A stretch of 37,199 bases of DNA from a virus, in the UHGV virus genome UHGV-0267296; one strand, given 5' to 3'. Positions 9,926 to 37,199 of the stretch are shown here, piece after piece. The notes beneath the pieces are model-generated. The model was not told the DNA's origin. It searched no databases and worked only from the letters and a program-made list of their open reading frames with translations. How positions within the stretch are numbered: the stretch's first letter is position 1; every line of letters begins with the position of its first letter. Both the position numbers and the translations under genes were made by a program.

Positions 9926-9995
9926 TGGAGTATATCATCAACGGCAGATGTGCAGGGTAGCGCCCTGTGTCCCGGTTCAATTCCGGGTGCTCCGC
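9926..9995 (+). other. tRNA-like element (acceptor stem plus canonical T-arm; anticodon/variable region non-canonical)
   Basis: tggagta..(7 bp with 2 G-U)..tgctccg acceptor pairing. D-stem catc/gatg with loop aacggca. Perfect T-arm cccgg-TTCAATT-ccggg. The anticodon arm folds only with a 5-nt loop, or with a 7-nt loop (anticodon AGC) and a 2-nt variable region. No CCA. Confidence 0.25.
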
Positions 9996-29591: not shown

Positions 29592-29644
29592 TACGTAAAG
29601 ATACGTGGAAAAAGATTGACATACGTAATGATACGTGATATAAT
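29591..29644 (+). promoter_or_regulatory. consensus sigma70 promoter (TTGACA-17-TATAAT) embedded in two 18-bp direct repeats atacgtaa[a/t]gatacgtg; likely HicB-autoregulated operator
   Basis: -35 at 29616-29621, -10 at 29639-29644; repeats at 29591-29608 and 29621-29638 (ATACGT x4). Confidence 0.6.
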
Positions 29645-29675: not shown

Positions 29676-29864
29676 ATGCCAATGACACCGAGAGAGATGA
29701 TAAAACATCTCAAGAAAAACGGGTTTGAGGAAATCAGTCAAAATGGTTCTCATGTAAAACTCAAGAATCAGACGACAGGGATAACAGTTATTGTTCCTTA
29801 TCACTCCAAAGCCATGAAAAAGGGGTTGGAGCAGGCAATATTAAAACAAGCGGGGCTTAAATAG
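29676..29864 (+). CDS. hicA: HicA-family toxin (mRNA interferase)
   Basis: 62 aa; REMIKHLKKNGFEEISQNGSHVKLKN..TVIVPYHSK matches the HicA/YcfA fold signature (catalytic His in GSHVK). Confidence 0.8.
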   Translation: MPMTPREMIKHLKKNGFEEISQNGSHVKLKNQTTGITVIVPYHSKAMKKGLEQAILKQAGLK

Positions 29865-29899: not shown

Positions 29900-30298
29900 A
29901 TGGAAAAATTATTTTATCCTGCAATTTTTCACGAGGCGGAAGAAGGCGGTTTTTGGGTATCCTTTCCGGATTTACCGGAATGCTTAACAGAGGGAGATGA
30001 TATGCAGCAGGCTTATGAGATGGCAGTAGATGCGCTGGGAATCTCTCTTACAAGCAGGAAAGCAGAAGGCGAACTGATTCCAAAACCGACAGAAATAAAT
30101 AAAGTAGATGCGGAAGACGGAATTTTAGCGGTCGTAGAGTTTGATATGATGGAATATCAGAAGAAACACAATTCACGTGCAATCAAGAAGACGCTTAGTA
30201 TTCCGGAATGGCTGAACGAAGAAGCGGTTGCCAGAGGAGTTAATTTCTCACAGGTATTGCAGGAAGCACTGATGCTGAAACTAAATATAGGAAGATAG
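29900..30298 (+). CDS. hicB: HicB-family antitoxin with C-terminal ribbon-helix-helix
   Basis: N-terminus MEKLFYPAIFHEAEEGGFWVSFPDLPECLTEGDDMQQAYEMAVDAL is the HicB/UPF0150 signature; C-terminus LSIPEWLNEEAVARGVNFSQVLQEAL is an RHH DNA-binding domain. Confidence 0.8.
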   Translation: MEKLFYPAIFHEAEEGGFWVSFPDLPECLTEGDDMQQAYEMAVDALGISLTSRKAEGELIPKPTEINKVDAEDGILAVVEFDMMEYQKKHNSRAIKKTLSIPEWLNEEAVARGVNFSQVLQEALMLKLNIGR

Positions 30299-30371: not shown

Positions 30372-31346
30372 ATGAGTATTTGTAGAGGAGTAGCAGGACT
30401 TAGAGGTGGAAATCCGAGAGGAATTTTTATTCACAACGATGCAGGATCACAAAATGCAAATGCGGCGTTTTACAGAAAATGGCTGCAAACACATCCGTTA
30501 GAAAACGGATTTGCTCACGCTTATGTAGCTAGTGACGGGATCTTGTATGCGGAAGATGATGCCTACGCAGCATGGCACTGCGGGCAGACAGACGGAAACC
30601 GGAACTATTATTCGATTGAGGTCTGTCAGAGTACGGGGGATTTGGAAATCTTTAAGAAAAATGAAGAGAATGCGTTGAAGTTGGCGGCGCAGAAGTGTAA
30701 GCAGTACGGTATCGTTCCAAGCTCGAATACAATCCGGCTGCACAAGGAGGTATTCGCGACAGCGTGCCCGCACAGATCCGTAGAGATTCACGGAGGGGAT
30801 TCCGGATGTAAGACATACTTTATTAATAAAATCCGTGAGTATATGGGAATGGACAAGCTGCCGGATGCTCCGGTTGTCAGTGGAGGCGGAAGCAGTGCAG
30901 CATCCGGTGATCCTGGCATTGTGTTTACTTATGGTGTTATGCTGACAGATGGAACAATCCTGCCCTTTGTGAATAACCTGTCTGATTTTGCAGGACTTCC
31001 GGGTCGTACAATCGCCGGTATCGCGATAAAGGTTAATAAAGGTACTGTAAAATACCGCGTGCATGTAAAGGGCAAAGGATGGTTACCTTATGTAACCGGA
31101 TGTAACTGGTCTGACGCAAACAACGGCTATGCTGGATATCCGGGAGCTGTGATCGATGCCGTAGAGGTATATTATGATACTCCGGCGGACATTGTTGCAA
31201 AATACGGTTATCAGAAAGCGCAGTATAGAGTTGCTCCGATCGGCGGTGGCTACTATCCTTGGCAGTTCGATAATGAAGTAGGAAATGGACAGGATGGATA
31301 TGCCGGATGTTTCGGCATTGCGTTTGATAAATTTCAGCTGTACTAA
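30372..31346 (+). CDS. endolysin, N-acetylmuramoyl-L-alanine amidase (Amidase_2/PGRP) with C-terminal cell-wall-binding region
   Basis: Amidase_2 motifs: IFIHNDAG, AHAYVASDGILYAEDDAYAAWHCG, SIEVCQS, TACPHRS; ~150-aa C-terminal domain; follows holin cassette. Confidence 0.85.
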   Translation: MSICRGVAGLRGGNPRGIFIHNDAGSQNANAAFYRKWLQTHPLENGFAHAYVASDGILYAEDDAYAAWHCGQTDGNRNYYSIEVCQSTGDLEIFKKNEENALKLAAQKCKQYGIVPSSNTIRLHKEVFATACPHRSVEIHGGDSGCKTYFINKIREYMGMDKLPDAPVVSGGGSSAASGDPGIVFTYGVMLTDGTILPFVNNLSDFAGLPGRTIAGIAIKVNKGTVKYRVHVKGKGWLPYVTGCNWSDANNGYAGYPGAVIDAVEVYYDTPADIVAKYGYQKAQYRVAPIGGGYYPWQFDNEVGNGQDGYAGCFGIAFDKFQLY

Positions 31347-31352
31347 AAACAT

Positions 31353-31376
31353 TCCCCGGAGTATCTGCTCCGGGGA
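31353..31376. terminator. 9-bp-stem hairpin between convergent endolysin and integrase genes (bidirectional terminator candidate)
   Basis: tccccggag-tatctg-ctccgggga; T-run on the minus-strand side (aatgttttta). Confidence 0.6.
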
Positions 31377-31531
31377 GAAATATTGTATCATCTTCATACA
31401 TTATATAAAGAAGTAACAGTTGTAGGTTTTTACGTTAAGGATACCTTATAGAGATATAAAATGATTTGTATGTTGTTACGAAAAGGTTGACCCTTTTGTT
31501 ATAACCTACAAAACTGCGAAAACCCTTGATT

Positions 31532-33013
31532 TTACTGGGATTCCGGCGCATAGTAGTAATAAACTTTCAGCTCATCTTTTGAGCGATCATATATAATCTT
31601 TTCTATCACGCTCTTTAGGATTTCATTTTTGGTTACGGGGTCCACAGAGTCAGATTCTATGATTTCATATACATTTCTTACTTTTTCCAACATAGCGATT
31701 TTAGAAGTATCAATAGTAGGTTCTGCTGGTTTTATGTCTGCAAGCTGCTTTTCCAGCATCTCTTTTTCTTCCTGAACCATGCGCTTATTTTCTTTATATT
31801 CGTCAAGTGTATCTACTCCATTACGGTACGCTTCTCTGATGCGGTCAAATTTTTCCGCATTCTTTCTTAACTGCTCCGTAATAATGACGTTTAGATCCAC
31901 AGAAGTTTCCGGCACCGGTTCAACGTGCCTGTAGATGATGTTGCCACTGTCCAGAACTTCTTTTATGGATGCAAGTACCGCCGGTTCTAACCTTAACGAG
32001 CTTACAGATGTTTTTGCAAGGCATTTTCCTTTTGAGTACCCATAGCATGTAAAATAGCAGTATGATTTTTGGTTACTTACTGTTTTGGCAATCATGGTTC
32101 TTCCGCATACAGGGCACTTCATAAGACCTGATAGCCAATGTTTGTATGTAGAGGAAGGTCTGGCGCCGGAAGGTTTGTATTCGCTTTTGTAACGGATCTG
32201 CGCTTTGTCAAATAATTCTTTAGATATAATAGCAGGTTGCTGACCATCAGAGACAATCCATTCTGATTCCGGTCGGATTTCATTTGTTTCGCTTACGGTA
32301 CGGTTCCATCGGATCATACCGCAGTAAGTTGGGTTCTGTAAGATGTATTCAATAGATCTGCGTTCAAATGGTTTATTGTGAGATGTTTTGAACCCACATG
32401 AATTTAGATAGCGTGCTATGTCGAATATTCCGGTATGTTCATTTACATATTTATCAAATATGATTTTAATTATTTCAGCTTCTTCCGGTACAATAACGGG
32501 AGGCTTTCCACGTTCTTGGATTTTATATCCAAGCGGAGGACGCGCCTGATAGCCGCCGCGTTTTGCCTTTTCTGTCATACCTCGTGTCACTTCGCCGGAA
32601 AGACGGACGGAATAGTACTCGTCCATCCATTCAATGATGCGCTCGATCAAAGAGCCGAACGGACCGTCTACAAGCGGCTCGGAAACGCTTAAAACGTCCA
32701 CATTATGCTTTTTTTTAAGAAGGGACTTATAAACGATAGATTCTTCCTGGTTTCTGGCAAAACGGCTGAATTTCCATACGATGATACAATCGACAGGATG
32801 TTTGTCTGATTTGGCAAGAGCAATCATTTTTTGAAATTCCGGACGTTTATCAGCTTTCCGACCGGAAATACCGAGCTCATAAAAGATTTGCAGGACAATC
32901 ATATCGTTCTTTTTAGCAAAGTCTTTCAACAGTTTTGCCTGCGAATCAGGAGAGAGCTCTTCTTGGCCGGATGTGGATACCCTAACATAACCATAACAAT
33001 ATTTAGTTTTCAT
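31532..33013 (-). CDS. int: large serine recombinase (phage integrase)
   Basis: N-terminal resolvase catalytic domain YGYVRVSTSGQEELSPDSQ (nucleophile Ser), recombinase domain, Cys-rich zinc-ribbon segment (CPVCGRTM..CYFTCYGYSKGKC), coiled-coil C-terminus; 493 aa. Confidence 0.9.
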   Translation of the reverse strand: MKTKYCYGYVRVSTSGQEELSPDSQAKLLKDFAKKNDMIVLQIFYELGISGRKADKRPEFQKMIALAKSDKHPVDCIIVWKFSRFARNQEESIVYKSLLKKKHNVDVLSVSEPLVDGPFGSLIERIIEWMDEYYSVRLSGEVTRGMTEKAKRGGYQARPPLGYKIQERGKPPVIVPEEAEIIKIIFDKYVNEHTGIFDIARYLNSCGFKTSHNKPFERRSIEYILQNPTYCGMIRWNRTVSETNEIRPESEWIVSDGQQPAIISKELFDKAQIRYKSEYKPSGARPSSTYKHWLSGLMKCPVCGRTMIAKTVSNQKSYCYFTCYGYSKGKCLAKTSVSSLRLEPAVLASIKEVLDSGNIIYRHVEPVPETSVDLNVIITEQLRKNAEKFDRIREAYRNGVDTLDEYKENKRMVQEEKEMLEKQLADIKPAEPTIDTSKIAMLEKVRNVYEIIESDSVDPVTKNEILKSVIEKIIYDRSKDELKVYYYYAPESQ

Positions 33014-33198
33014 GACATCACCTCGGTTGATTCATTCTATTCCTGACAGAGCAGAAAAATGAGTATAAAAATAACAGCTATCAAGAAACAAATGTTCTGA
33101 TTGCGATAGCTGACCGAAGATGATACAATATTTTCGTTGATTAGGTGTATATCTTCGGATATATTCCAGAGCCGTTCCTGTTGGCGCAGGGGCGGTTC

Positions 33199-33226
33199 TT
33201 GACATTTATGGTACATTTGCTATAAT
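33199..33226 (+). promoter_or_regulatory. near-consensus sigma70 promoter (TTGACA-16-TATAAT) driving a short + strand transcript with no ORF
   Basis: cttgacatttatggtacatttgctataatg; no + strand coding sequence until 35282. Confidence 0.5.
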
Positions 33227-33233
33227 GTACTTA

Positions 33234-33336
33234 ACAGGATAGCCGGAAGGTGACTGCACCTCACCCGCTCCGGTGCAACTTAAAAAACTATAAGAAATAG
33301 TCGTCAGCTTTGTCAGGGCAGGACGGCTATTTTTTA
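33234..33336 (+). ncRNA. candidate antisense sRNA (type I antitoxin-like) ending in T-run overlapping the 3' end of minus-strand peptide gene
   Basis: ~100 nt from predicted TSS to ctatttttt at 33327-33336; internal stems ggtgactgcacc and ccgg..ccgg; 3' end overlaps stop codon region of the 33327..33410 peptide ORF. Confidence 0.3.
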
Positions 33337-33410
33337 TGCGTATAATTCAGAATGGCTACAACCAAAAGCGCAATGCTTATGATCAAACTGAGTTCTTCAT
33401 ATGTACTCAT
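33327..33410 (-). CDS. 27-aa hydrophobic peptide, type I toxin-like (MSTYEELSLIISIALLVVAILNYTHKK)
   Basis: ATG preceded by strong SD ggagggggggtgg; single TM helix plus basic C-terminus; convergent with and overlapping the promoter-driven + strand RNA. Confidence 0.4.
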   Translation of the reverse strand: MSTYEELSLIISIALLVVAILNYTHKK

Positions 33411-33543
33411 AATTACCACCCCCCCTCCACAGGATTCTCGGAATGGGTGGAAGCTCGTCCTCCGGCTACCCTGGTAAATACATTTTCCTTCGTATATGCT
33501 CCGGCGACTTTGGGAGTGTCGGGTATATTTCGTATAACGTAAA

Positions 33544-33567
33544 AGACCCCGTATTACTACGGGGTCT
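33544..33567 (-). terminator. terminator of the minus-strand PemK/MazF-like operon
   Basis: agaccccgta-ttac-tacggggtct; on the minus strand followed by ttttac. Confidence 0.65.
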
Positions 33568-33674
33568 AAGTTGTGCAGGTAAACTGCATTGTCCTAATGT
33601 TATACACGCTAAGGTGTTTTGTTCTATAACATTATATGTTGGTATGCCCCAAAAGTCAATACTTTATACTATAA

Positions 33675-34421
33675 TTATTTACCAATATATAATTCGCAGA
33701 TTTTTTTATCTATTATATTTAAACTTTCATCGCTTAATTTTATACCTGCAAAAGCATCGGAATAATGCAAAGGTTTTGTTATTCGTATTTTGCTAATTGT
33801 TGTGATTTGAGAAACTAAGCCAATGCTTCCAGTTTTCATTAAATCAATTTCTTTTTGCACCTTATCGGCTTCCGTTGTATCTACTGTAAAAGCTATCGTT
33901 ATTTTCTCTCCGGCATACACCGGATTTGGCGATACTTTCACATCTTGAATTGAATTATTGAATTTTTGCATATACTTTTGATGGAGCTTATCATATATTT
34001 CGTTTCCCAAATCAATAGTGAATTTATTAGGTGTGGTATATTCTTTTTTAGATGAAAGAGGAAGTACGGTTAATATATCGGAATAAGGGGAGTCTTTTTT
34101 ATTTAAAACAACCGCATAATGCAATCCGCCTTCTTCATGACCAATACGAAAGCCTAGGTCAACTTGAATAATTTCACCTCTTTTGTATACTTTATTTTTT
34201 GAAGCATCAAATGTTTTTTCTTTTTTAATAAATCTACAATATGTATTGATCCAATACGAAAGCAGATTTACTTTTTTGAGATGGGAATCGTTTTCTGTTG
34301 TGCTGTCTTCAGGTGCTTTTTTAATGTGTGCTTCAAGCAGCTCATTAAGGGTTTTTATAGCTCTTTTTTTATTTCCGATGACCTCATTTTTATCGAAAAA
34401 ATATTTTTCTTTTTGTTTCAT
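33675..34421 (-). CDS. atypically long PemK/MazF-fold protein (249 aa) - toxin/abortive-infection candidate
   Basis: KRGEIIQVDLGFRIGHEEGGLHYAVVLNKKDSPYSDILTVLPLSS matches the MazF/PemK core (RGdIv.vdf..g.E..g.RPalVls). Second conserved block LVSQITTISKIRI ~70 aa later implies an insertion. ATG at 34421 with RBS gagggaag; N-terminal 90-aa extension. Confidence 0.55.
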   Translation of the reverse strand: MKQKEKYFFDKNEVIGNKKRAIKTLNELLEAHIKKAPEDSTTENDSHLKKVNLLSYWINTYCRFIKKEKTFDASKNKVYKRGEIIQVDLGFRIGHEEGGLHYAVVLNKKDSPYSDILTVLPLSSKKEYTTPNKFTIDLGNEIYDKLHQKYMQKFNNSIQDVKVSPNPVYAGEKITIAFTVDTTEADKVQKEIDLMKTGSIGLVSQITTISKIRITKPLHYSDAFAGIKLSDESLNIIDKKICELYIGK

Positions 34422-34500
34422 AGCGTTTTTACTTCCCTCTCTTTCTTTTGTCCCCTGTTCCTTTAACACCACTTTATATAATCGCCGTAGCGGTTATACC

Positions 34501-34713
34501 TTATTTATGCGCAGACATTTCGATTTTCTGTACATCTATTTTCTCAAAATCACGCTCCTTTATATGCCTAATCGCATGGTTAATTGCCTTTAACCGTTTG
34601 CTTTCACATAAATTTGCGTTTATAAAAATAGTGAATGAATTATCTTCATTCTCGGTTATTACTTCATTAACGGTCATTCCGTCCATGAAAAAAATTTGAT
34701 AATCAAAACTCAT
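34501..34713 (-). CDS. small protein upstream of MazF-like gene (candidate antitoxin), 70 aa
   Basis: Co-directional, immediately 5' of the MazF-like gene, overlaps repressor stop; acidic N-half, basic C-half (KRLKAINHAIRHIKERDFEK). Confidence 0.35.
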   Translation of the reverse strand: MSFDYQIFFMDGMTVNEVITENEDNSFTIFINANLCESKRLKAINHAIRHIKERDFEKIDVQKIEMSAHK

Positions 34714-35080
34714 TATTATCACGTTCCTTTTTCTTTAATGCCATAAGCATGTCATATGTTGTTTTCAAATCTTCCGGAGTAGCATCTTTTGCAGCATCGA
34801 ATAAGACACGCAAATCTTTGTTTTCAAATAGTTTTTGTGCCATCTCAGCGGTTTCTTCGTTTAAATAGTACTTCTCACCGCCTTCCTTTTCTTCGCCAGT
34901 ACGAATATACTCTACTGATACTCCAAACAAGTCAGCAATTTTTTGTAGTTTTGCATCTTTGGGGTTGCTTCTTCCATTCTTCCAGTCGGAGAAAGTTGAC
35001 TTGGTAATCCCAGTTTCCCTTGCAACGTCAGCGTCTTTCATGCCTTTGGCATCTCTTAACTTGCAATAAATTTCATACAT
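34703..35080 (-). CDS. CI-like repressor (XRE-family HTH plus C-terminal domain)
   Basis: ATG 35080 with SD gaggtg; HTH DADVARETGITKSTFSDWKNGRSNPKDAKLQKIADLFGVSVEYI; divergent from cro-like gene. The ORF track extends further 5' to 35176 through the operator region. Confidence 0.8.
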   Translation of the reverse strand: MYEIYCKLRDAKGMKDADVARETGITKSTFSDWKNGRSNPKDAKLQKIADLFGVSVEYIRTGEEKEGGEKYYLNEETAEMAQKLFENKDLRVLFDAAKDATPEDLKTTYDMLMALKKKERDNNEF

Positions 35081-35281
35081 AATACACCTCACAAAAAAAA
35101 TTCTGAAATCAGTACAAAAGCTATTGACAAGTTCTGATATCCGCACTATAATAAAGCTACAAAGTTCGGAAATCAAAACAGAATTGTAACTTAATTCTTT
35201 GTCAATGTATCTGGTAAATATATTGTATCTGATTTCCGAACTAAAATCAATAGGAAAGTTCGGAAATGAGGTGATTATTTA
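35081..35281. promoter_or_regulatory. divergent CI/Cro control region: consensus PR (TTGACA-17-TATAAT at 35124-35152) and repeated operator half-sites AGTTCGGAAAT
   Basis: agttcggaaatc at 35163-35174, gatttccgaact (inverted) at 35231-35242, agttcggaaatg at 35258-35269, related ttctgaaatc at 35101-35110. Confidence 0.6.
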
Positions 35282-35491
35282 ATGTATGAAAAATATGTAG
35301 AAATCAGGGATTCAAGAAAACTGACAGATTATCGTGTGTCAGAAGATACTGGAATAACTAAATCTACATTTTCTGATTGGAAGTCAGGAAGAAGTAAGCC
35401 AAAGATGGAAAAGCTCAAAATCCTCGCCGACTACTTCGGAGTATCTATTGAGTACTTCCTAGAGGAGTGTAACAGGAAAGGTGTTCGATAA
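35282..35491 (+). CDS. Cro-like XRE-family HTH regulator
   Basis: 69 aa; HTH TDYRVSEDTGITKSTFSDWKSGRSKPKMEKLKILADYFGVSIEYF, nearly the same recognition helix region as the CI-like protein. Confidence 0.75.
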   Translation: MYEKYVEIRDSRKLTDYRVSEDTGITKSTFSDWKSGRSKPKMEKLKILADYFGVSIEYFLEECNRKGVR

Positions 35492-36720: not shown

Positions 36721-37199
36721 GTGAAGAAATTTGAATTAACAAATGAATTTATTACAAATATGTTCGGGACAAAGCTGTTCCGCATCCGTGCCCTTGTTGA
36801 GTTCGGCGATGTGGAAGCCGGAGAACTTGGCGGGTATGTGGAGAAGGAATCAAACCTTGGTCATGACGACAATGCGTGGGTGTACGACAATGCGTGGGTG
36901 TACGGCAATGCGCTGGTGTGCGGCAATGCGCGGGTGTGCGGCGATGCGCGGGTGTGCGGCAATGCGCTGGTGTGCGGCAATGCGCTGGTGTACGACAATG
37001 CGTGGGTGTACGGCAATGCGCGGGTGTGCGGCAATGCGCTGGTGTACGACAATGCGTGGGTGTACGGCAATGCGCGGGTGTGCGGCGATGCGCGGGTGTG
37101 CGGCGATGCGCGGGTGTGCGGCAATGGGGACTATGCATACGCTCACGGTTTCGGATCTGTCAACCGTACAACGACCTTCTTCCGTCTCAAAGATGGTGG
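36721..37199 (+). CDS. hexapeptide-repeat (N-A-x-V-x-G/D) protein, N-terminal part; runs off the right end and plausibly continues at 2..139
   Basis: GTG start with SD aaaggg; after a 48-aa leader, ~14 consecutive 6-aa repeats NAWVYD/NALVCG/NARVCG/DARVCG then GNGDYAYAHGFGSVNRTTTFFRLKDG; no stop before the window end. Confidence 0.6.
   Translation, partial: MKKFELTNEFITNMFGTKLFRIRALVEFGDVEAGELGGYVEKESNLGHDDNAWVYDNAWVYGNALVCGNARVCGDARVCGNALVCGNALVYDNAWVYGNARVCGNALVYDNAWVYGNARVCGDARVCGDARVCGNGDYAYAHGFGSVNRTTTFFRLKDG
36865..37126. repeat. tandem array of ~14.5 imperfect 18-bp units (consensus gacaatgcgtgggtgtac / ggcaatgcgcgggtgtgc)
   Basis: Directly visible periodicity; causes all six frames to be open locally (minus-strand ORFs 36752..37138, 36850..37146, 36861..37124 are repeat artefacts). 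Confidence 0.9.

Follow-up and report, generated by a model that had tools for sequence, protein, structure and literature searches.

A probable TxpA/BsrG-class type I toxin-antitoxin cassette among the lysogeny genes of a temperate phage

In UHGV virus genome UHGV-0267296 (37,199 nucleotides (nt), the whole of which is called the window below), a consensus promoter located upstream of the integrase gene faces a very short open reading frame (ORF) on the opposite strand. Do the two form a type I toxin-antitoxin module? The phage is temperate, and the window is its genome or a prophage in phage gene order. An initial reading of the bare sequence (the original prediction) had placed such a module between 33199 and 33410, next to the integrase as is often the case in prophages. 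A near-perfect sigma-70 promoter (TTGACA-16-TATAAT at 33199-33226) with no ORF downstream would give rise to a transcript of about 100 nt, ending at a T-run (33327-33336) overlapping with the 3' end of a gene for a 27-amino-acid (aa) peptide with a single transmembrane helix, a basic tail and a strong Shine-Dalgarno (SD) sequence. The arrangement was likened to Fst/RNAII, TxpA/RatA and BsrG/SR4; a search for homologous peptide genes and the folding of the plus-strand RNA were suggested as checks. The analysis presented here indicates that the locus very probably represents a TxpA/BsrG-class type I toxin-antitoxin cassette. It would be an accessory gene ("moron") that a temperate phage of [Ruminococcus] torques carries in its lysogeny region. 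This interpretation is based on the family membership of the peptide, a conserved convergent promoter, covariation in the antisense RNA, purifying selection and a feature-by-feature match to bsrG/SR4. Coordinates are collected in Table 1.

A conserved cassette of peptide gene and convergent promoter

The minus-strand ORF starts with an ATG at 33410 and terminates with a TAG codon at 33329..33327. Its product has a single transmembrane helix and a Lys-Lys tail, as first described, and displays an N-terminal M-[ST]-[TV]-Y-E motif along with the basic C-terminus. The strong SD also holds up: the sequence GGAGGGGGGGTGG (33428..33416) is separated from the ATG by 5 nt. Starting at the in-frame GTG at 33419, the peptide would have 30 aa, but this codon is located inside the SD. 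When compared to Pfam, the peptide matched PF16935 (Hol_Tox) with 28.3 bits (E = 1.6e-6; gathering threshold 23.3). The same model gave 34.5 bits with BsrG, whose query sequence is a 100% match to the SPbeta genome, and 31.3 bits with TxpA. Hol_Tox was the sole Pfam match, with the Fst family not hit, and NCBIfam has no model for the 27-aa peptide. In PHROG, the match was to PHROG 9488, a phage family of unknown function. The exact peptide is found in NCBI as a "putative holin-like toxin" of [Ruminococcus] torques, in 55 contigs; because the annotation names this species, it is the probable host. Among 27-codon members, the ratio of nonsynonymous to synonymous substitution (dN/dS) is 0.13 in the peptide frame, the remaining five frames giving 0.34-2.7; the ORF evolves under purifying selection.

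Relatives were sought by scanning viral and genome collections with degenerate DNA patterns. The scans identified 158 short ORFs for 102 distinct peptides of 22-38 aa, all 102 sharing the M-[ST]-[TV]-Y-E motif; homologous peptide genes, one of the suggested checks, thus exist in number. They are mainly from Lachnospiraceae and other Clostridia, from Negativicutes and from Bacillaceae; non-redundant modules number at least 88, in Clostridia, Negativicutes and Bacilli. Some family members form tandem arrays in chromosomes, with no integrase. Such arrays (L052, L106, L065 and L091; species Hungatella hathewayi, Enterocloster lavalensis and Clostridium sp. MCC353) comprise two to three Hol_Tox copies at 350-500 base pair (bp) spacing, every copy having its own antisense RNA match.

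The promoter facing the peptide gene scores 12/12, its TATAAT at 33221-33226 being preceded by a spacer that ends in TGC (extended -10). Exact TTGACA-N16-18-TATAAT sites occur three times in the 37-kb window as compared to 0.02 expected from shuffles, which agrees with the near-perfect promoter originally reported. A convergent promoter, defined as an antisense-strand sigma-70 match of at least 10/12 whose -10 ends 70-150 nt beyond the stop codon of the toxin gene, is seen in 101 of 125 distinct family modules; shuffles lead one to expect 3.3, and the sense strand has 5. In the subfamily to which the window locus belongs (hereafter the subfamily), 29 of 30 modules have one, mostly scoring 12/12, with the hexamers conserved and the spacer sequence variable. 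As originally noted, nothing downstream appears to encode protein: the plus strand has no ORF of 20 aa or more between 33233 and 33340. A 16-codon GUG ORF within the RNA was considered and rejected as coding, given its zero spacing to an SD-like motif and its lack of conservation.

Searching IMG/VR with an exact 23-mer from the toxin gene yielded 21 contigs. Their alignment shows 99-100% identity from the -35 of the plus-strand promoter (33199) to approximately 33487, whereas the sequences on either side split sharply into three or more contexts. The left edge of conservation falls exactly at the -35; because identity starts there and the flanks diverge abruptly, the promoter is part of a discrete cassette of about 290 bp. 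The elements initially assigned to 33199-33410 are therefore all in place, but the right end was set too short, since the module runs to about 33490. All 21 near-identical copies sit in phage lysogeny regions adjoining a serine recombinase, consistent with the proposed association with integrases. The same cassette (99-100% identical) is found beside two unrelated serine recombinases (23% identity), either some 400 bp or some 1450 bp away. In 14 of the 21 contigs, the distance between the toxin ATG and the end of an upstream gene with a PemK/MazF domain is 267 bp, and the cassette is also found without this gene. Tblastn with the peptide returned no match among INPHARED phages, and blastn with the cassette no meaningful one; the window has no close relative among deposited phages.

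Two alternatives bear on these data. Positioned 186-400 bp upstream of the integrase start, where a conserved noncoding element occupies 33056-33200, the region could be the phage attachment site (attP) or regulatory region of the serine integrase, with promoter and ORF incidental. We give this explanation next to no credence. The cassette stays 99-100% identical beside unrelated recombinases and at differing distances from them, family members reside in integrase-free chromosomal arrays, the ORF is under purifying selection and the RNA covaries (see below). Moreover, the integrase-associated element stops at 33198, exactly where the cassette starts.

Alternatively, the peptide might be a membrane protein for phage lysis or superinfection exclusion (a true holin or antiholin), the antisense RNA merely timing its expression. 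The "holin-like" name in Pfam, the single transmembrane helix, the phage-borne location and the match to a phage family in PHROG are all in line with this possibility, which nonetheless appears highly improbable. The gene occupies a lysogeny-module position on the strand opposite to the lysis genes and away from the endolysin gene; at 27 aa, the product is far below the size of known holins; modules also exist in bacterial chromosomes, at times as arrays; and the characterized members of the family, TxpA, BsrG and EF3263, behave as type I toxins.

Table 1. Features of the cassette and of the surrounding region (positions in the window; strand-specific elements are written as in the analysis).
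Feature	Position	Strand	Remarks
Whole cassette	33199..33490	both	Conserved unit, ~290 bp
Antitoxin RNA promoter	33199..33226	+	-35 TTGACA 33199-33204, 16-nt spacer, extended -10 TGcTATAAT 33218-33226
Antitoxin RNA, ~105 nt, noncoding	33233..33338	+	5' hairpin 33242-33274, A/U-rich linker, terminator hairpin 33289-33338, U-tract 33330-33335
Toxin ORF, 27 aa + stop	33327..33410	-	MSTYEELSLIISIALLVVAILNYTHKK; Hol_Tox / TxpA-BsrG family
Translation-initiation hairpin	33416..33450	-	SD GGAGGGGGGGUGG (33428..33416) pairs with upstream anti-SD CCACCC (33450..33445) around an inner hairpin
P1-like helix, 5' arm in toxin 5' untranslated region	33439..33473	-	Fold and covariation
P1-like helix, 3' arm	33235..33277	-	Toxin-sense copy of the region encoding the antitoxin 5' hairpin
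Candidate toxin -10 box GAAAAT	33482..33487	-	Weak, without -35; predicted transcription start site near 33475-33479
Endolysin	30372-31346	+	Window gene
Large serine recombinase (integrase)	31532-33013	-	Window gene
Gap holding the module			660 bp between serine recombinase and PemK/MazF-domain gene
PemK/MazF-domain gene, 265 aa	33675-34472	-	Pfam/PHROG matches
Small ImmA-like ORF			Between PemK/MazF-domain gene and XRE repressor
XRE repressor	34703-35176	-	Window gene
cro-like gene, divergent	35282-35491	+	Window gene

Predicted structures of the antitoxin RNA and of the toxin mRNA

Folding of the plus-strand RNA, another of the suggested checks, gave -39.6 kcal/mol for the segment 33233-33340 (z = -4.58), with a 5' hairpin and a long terminator hairpin. 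Both the size of about 100 nt and the end at a T-run are borne out, the only correction being that the range of 33327-33336 was slightly generous: the T-run proper extends from 33330 to 33335. The six U's of the terminator are the complement of two Lys codons, and 33327-33329 is the complement of the TAG stop. In an alignment of 17 subfamily antitoxin RNAs, RNAalifold recovered the same two hairpins with compensatory changes in 13 of 22 pairs. Of all alignment cells, 96.8% are paired compared to 38-53% in slid controls, and none of 500 shuffles reaches the observed values. G·U pairs exceed A·C pairs 34 to 7 overall, the bias being strongest in the terminator (27 to 4); because of this excess, the structure can be assigned to the plus strand.

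A covariance model built on this RNA type (R1), with which the window locus scores 105 bits, produced 73 matches in 1.2 Mb of fetched loci, and 66 of these abut a Hol_Tox-like ORF on the opposite strand. Two further matches revealed divergent peptides beginning with MVTYSDL that the peptide pattern had missed. These belong to second modules placed beside a main one (L137, 1015-1113; L151, 7135-7230), with toxins of 28-29 aa found solely via R1, and suggest that RNAs of this type also accompany another subfamily of toxins. In Rfam, at E values up to 10, the window RNA had no match except chance-level eukaryotic families (microRNA and small nucleolar RNA types). R1 gave no match at the SR4 locus of SPbeta; thus, the window antitoxin RNA and SR4 are not detectably homologous.

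Since transcription is convergent and the stop-codon hairpin is flanked on both sides by an A-tract and a U-tract, the locus might also be viewed as an Fst/RNAII (par)-type module, in which a bidirectional terminator is shared and pairing occurs via 5' direct repeats covering the translation start. Several lines of evidence make this extremely improbable. Aside from the peptide matching Hol_Tox alone, the hairpin is tuned to the plus strand, as seen in the G·U excess above and in 98.0% of cells being paired on this strand versus 86.8% on the other. The 5' repeats are inverted in the DNA, so that the two RNAs carry the same sequence and not complementary ones, and the closing helix described below needs read-through of the hairpin on the toxin strand. 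Thus, from the classes named originally, the TxpA/RatA and BsrG/SR4 types are upheld and the Fst/RNAII type is not.

In the toxin mRNA, the SD was found sequestered in all of 18 subfamily members, by both minimum free energy and partition-function folds, with unpaired probabilities of 0.08-0.42. The two arms of the hairpin co-vary between members (CCACCC/GGGUGG, CCGUCU/AGGCGG, CCAUCU/AGGUGG, UUCCC/GGGAA). Folds were made for each sequence separately, as the MAFFT/RNAalifold consensus of the 5' untranslated region (UTR) was poor due to indels in the G-run.

The 5' UTR (-70 to -18) is in addition complementary to the toxin-sense copy of the antitoxin 5'-hairpin region. At the DNA level, this complementarity amounts to an inverted repeat, with the two -10 boxes and the two transcript starts lying inside it. 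Folding the minus strand from 33481 to 33233 gave -85.3 kcal/mol (z = -3.66) and a 31-bp interrupted closing helix between 33439-33473 and 33235-33277. In the corresponding subfamily alignment (A4), 84% of cells are paired versus 40-51% in slid controls, a level attained in 0 of 500 shuffles, and 14 pairs show double changes. The pairs include 86 G·U and 24 A·C, which speaks for a helix of the toxin-sense RNA. Over the 88 non-redundant modules, cognate duplexes average -39.7 kcal/mol as compared to -23.4 for non-cognate ones (z = -2.42), with 81% of the cognate duplexes falling in the best decile; the toxin-sense duplex is more stable than its antitoxin-sense version in 74 of 88 (p = 1e-10). 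Two other pairings were considered. A helix of the 5' UTR with the proximal 3' UTR (first 50 nt past the stop) was rejected (cognate z = -0.28, versus -2.42 for the distal one), and the signal for a direct interaction between the 5' domain of the antitoxin and the SD/start region was weak and non-discriminating (z = -0.29).

Because the conserved, covarying helix between 5' and 3' UTR requires it, the toxin mRNA is expected to reach approximately position 33235. It probably spans the entire antitoxin gene, making the ~105-nt antitoxin complementary to the toxin 3' UTR over its full length. Hence the 3' overlap of the two transcripts, initially seen at the T-run, is upheld as such but probably comprises the whole antitoxin RNA.

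Some observations weigh against the type I interpretation. Family modules are not phylogenetically independent, and shuffle-based statistics overstate significance. The SD accessibility shifts only slightly upon modelled antitoxin binding, from 0.285 to 0.249 (p = 0.002); as it changes so little in silico, additional repression of translation by the antitoxin is no more than a possibility. Past the closing helix's 3' arm, the window subfamily shows no canonical terminator in the toxin sense, unlike L025, L028, L031 and bsrG, where one is seen (a simple scanner missed large-loop terminators, including the window's own, and its counts of 20-31 out of 88 are lower bounds). TxpA is toxic in Bacillus subtilis and not in Escherichia coli, making toxicity host-dependent (PMC2887945). 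Lastly, the toxin promoter of the window is poor, with GAAAAT as its -10 and no -35. The window copy could be weakly expressed, reliant on read-through from a promoter at 33659..33631, or partly disabled.

This last point can be taken further. The usual distance in the family between the end of the sense -10 and the ATG downstream of it is 50-70 nt; the GAAAAT of the window aligns with TATAAT or AATAAT of subfamily members, and the cassette boundary falls here. No promoter scoring 9/12 or more was found on the minus strand between 33544 and 33430. The window copy might thus be a decaying or silenced module, its antitoxin still expressed and its toxin untranscribed since recombination replaced the upstream half of the promoter. 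In keeping with such a scenario, the boundary cuts the toxin promoter, and the window and 13 sibling contigs have GAAAAT without a -35 where other contexts have AATAAT or TATAAT. We regard decay as unlikely, while granting it an appreciable chance. The ORF, the SD hairpin and the closing helix are intact and 100% conserved across contexts; the 33659..33631 promoter, which scores 11/12 and is followed by a moderate terminator, could supply read-through; and weak toxin promoters are typical of the class, the SR4 promoter being much stronger than that of bsrG (PMC3834814).

Relationship to characterized systems and proposed mechanism

As a positive control, the same scripts were run on SPbeta. 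They recovered the -10 box 67 nt upstream of the bsrG ATG, the CCCC/GGGG hairpin at the SD, the SR4 terminator abutting the stop with its Lys-templated U-tract, a 5' UTR/3' UTR duplex of -43 kcal/mol and the SR4 promoter 180 nt from the stop. In bsrG mRNA, probing established a helix, P1, between nt 1-35 and nt 232-262; binding of SR4 opens P1, and the helix at the SD lengthens from 4 to 8 bp (PMC3834814). The window module resembles bsrG/SR4 in being prophage-borne, in specifying a toxin of the same Pfam family, in having a sense -10 about 67 nt upstream of the ATG and an SD buried in a C-rich/G-rich hairpin, in the antitoxin terminator that abuts the stop with a U-tract templated by C-terminal Lys codons, in the long P1-type helix between 5' and 3' UTR, and in the convergent, stronger antitoxin promoter. 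It differs in that the toxin is 27 aa long compared to 38 aa for BsrG, the antitoxin measures about 105 nt compared to about 180 nt for SR4 and has no non-complementary stem-loop at its 5' end, the P1-like helix has a 3' arm that coincides with the antitoxin 5' hairpin, and no separate toxin terminator is visible. The overlap between SR4 and bsrG amounts to 123 nt, comparable to the ~105 nt deduced for the window module.

Similarity extends to txpA/RatA from the skin element of B. subtilis, where the toxin is of the same family, the RNAs overlap at their 3' ends (by ~120 nt), the txpA mRNA is ~270 nt long (at least 245 nt deduced here), the SD is sequestered and control is RNase III-dependent. 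Unlike the window module, this system has a 59-aa toxin, an antitoxin of ~222 nt and a terminator for each RNA; the window RNA has no Rfam match. In Enterococcus faecalis, the EF3263/ratA module combines a short toxin of the TxpA family with a ~110-nt antisense RNA over the 3' UTR, both this RNA and toxicity having been demonstrated (PMC2887945). A MazF-family gene is adjacent in either case: mazEF in E. faecalis and, in the window, a gene for a 265-aa fused protein with no obvious MazE partner. What the window module has in common with Fst/RNAII (par of pAD1) is convergent small genes, a small hydrophobic toxin and translation control via mRNA structure. However, the toxin family is another one, and par has a truly bidirectional terminator and direct repeats conferring complementarity on the 5' ends of its RNAs, whereas the repeats of the window are inverted and serve an intramolecular helix.

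The sequence features, the assignment to a family, the conservation, the covariation and its strand specificity are observed here. We infer transcription, the pathway of RNA-RNA interaction, the involvement of RNase III, toxicity and the biological role from these comparisons, along the following lines. A weak minus-strand promoter would produce a toxin mRNA of at least ~245 nt, in which an anti-SD hairpin in the 5' UTR would hide the SD and the first ~35 nt would pair with the far end of the 3' UTR to form the closing helix, the presumed counterpart of P1 in bsrG. The encoded product would be the 27-residue, single-helix membrane peptide with its Lys-Lys tail. From the plus-strand consensus promoter, an abundant antitoxin RNA of ~105 nt would be made, its terminator abutting the toxin stop codon and the Lys codons providing the template for its U-tract. 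This RNA, whose complementarity to the toxin 3' UTR would be complete, might, by analogy with SR4 and RatA, initiate pairing at the complementary terminator loops, open the closing helix and leave in place or tighten the hairpin that sequesters the SD. The resulting duplex with the 3' UTR may be a substrate for RNase III, as suggested by txpA/RatA and bsrG/SR4. Toxin would then be made solely once the short-lived antitoxin is no longer supplied, the likely benefit being prophage retention, or the death of cells that lose or perturb the prophage.

One could envisage that the ~290-bp unit is in itself a mobile, self-contained cassette, the ends of which carry an imperfect inverted repeat of 30-45 bp including both -10 boxes and the 5' ends of both transcripts. 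We rate this idea as improbable. Were it correct, the repeat would have two roles: as RNA, it would form the closing helix of the toxin mRNA and, as DNA, it would supply ends for recombination or hairpin formation, by which the cassette would pass from one phage lysogeny module to another. The toxin gene would have no terminator of its own, and its transcription, running into the strong antitoxin promoter, would be limited by transcriptional interference.

Altogether, the locus joins a known type, that of TxpA/BsrG, with a notably compact layout and an antitoxin RNA for which Rfam has no family. It leaves the concept of type I systems unchanged and will not surprise the specialist. What it offers is a gain in annotation, support from across the family for a P1-type helix and an experimental entry point in gut commensals. 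To our knowledge, experimental work on type I systems has dealt with Bacillus, Enterococcus, Staphylococcus and C. difficile, and very little with the Lachnospiraceae that dominate in the gut or with their phages; our literature search turned up no paper on modules of this kind in phages of Ruminococcus or Lachnospiraceae. A catalogue of the TxpA family published in 2010 lists 118 members, including Clostridiales, Lactobacillales and a staphylococcal phage (PMC2887945), and a 2019 review mentions, for Clostridia outside C. difficile, solely a TxpA-like sequence in C. bolteae (PMC6563280). Toxicity upon overexpression in Firmicute hosts has been shown for TxpA, BsrG and EF3263 only (PMC2887945, PMC3834814). 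The data may be of use for better annotating small genes and small RNAs (sRNAs) in gut phage genomes and for understanding how prophages are stabilized in commensals, the present phage carrying HicAB-like genes and a MazF-like gene besides the type I module. They could also lead to tools for counter-selection or RNA-guided repression in genetically difficult Lachnospiraceae, as has been done with bsrG/SR4 and with C. difficile modules (PMC6563280).

Other features of the window

The conserved noncoding element between the integrase start and the cassette (33056-33200, plus strand) contains the invariant sequence GAAGATGATACAATATT, with an extended -10 and TTGCGA as -35 at 33101, a small hairpin at 33147-33160 with a UUCG-type loop whose arms co-vary between contigs, and a plus-strand terminator at 33172-33197 rich in U·G pairs. 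It is ~77% identical upstream of three integrase types, including the tyrosine integrases of R. gnavus phages, and has no match in Rfam. It looks like the gene for a ~60-nt sRNA, divergent from int. A perfect 18-nt inverted repeat (GAAGATGATACAATATTT) flanks the integrase gene at 31378-31395 and 33116-33133, the two copies facing outward; the left one is immediately followed by a hairpin-terminator (31376..31353, minus strand). By a rough estimate, the chance expectation of such a repeat is ~3e-5. It could mark co-regulated outward promoters or a boundary for module exchange.

On the other side of the cassette, between the MazF-like gene and the toxin 5' UTR, the 11/12 promoter mentioned above (TTGACT-17-TATAAT, 33659..33631, minus strand) precedes a stretch of about 85 nt with three hairpins, including a terminator at 33567..33544 (z = -4.9). 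The segment 33538-33659 is 100% conserved along with the MazF-like gene in 14 contigs and might represent either an sRNA in its own right or a leader/attenuator through which transcription reaches the toxin gene. In the 265-aa protein encoded at 33675-34472 (minus strand), the PemK/MazF toxin domain covers residues 97-158, and the match to PHROG 1412 is full-length. In E. faecalis, mazEF adjoins txpA-ratA and the two systems cross-regulate (PMC6563280).

A third perfect promoter (TTGACA-N17-TATAAT, 29616-29644, plus strand) lies ahead of a HicA-like ORF of 62 aa (29676-29864), which is followed by a HicB-like ORF of 132 aa (29900-30298), also on the plus strand and directly before the endolysin gene. 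With this HicAB-like pair added to the MazF-like gene and the type I module, the phage has three toxin-antitoxin-like accessory genes ("morons"). Near the right end of the window, an 18-bp tandem repeat (CAATGCGCGGGTGTGCGG; 36870-37126, 14.3 copies, 89% matches), from which long, repetitive "PAHRRT" ORFs arise in each of three frames, possibly represents an iteron- or origin-like array. ARAGORN identified a tRNA-Ala with anticodon AGC at 9927-9995 (plus strand), within the structural-gene region.

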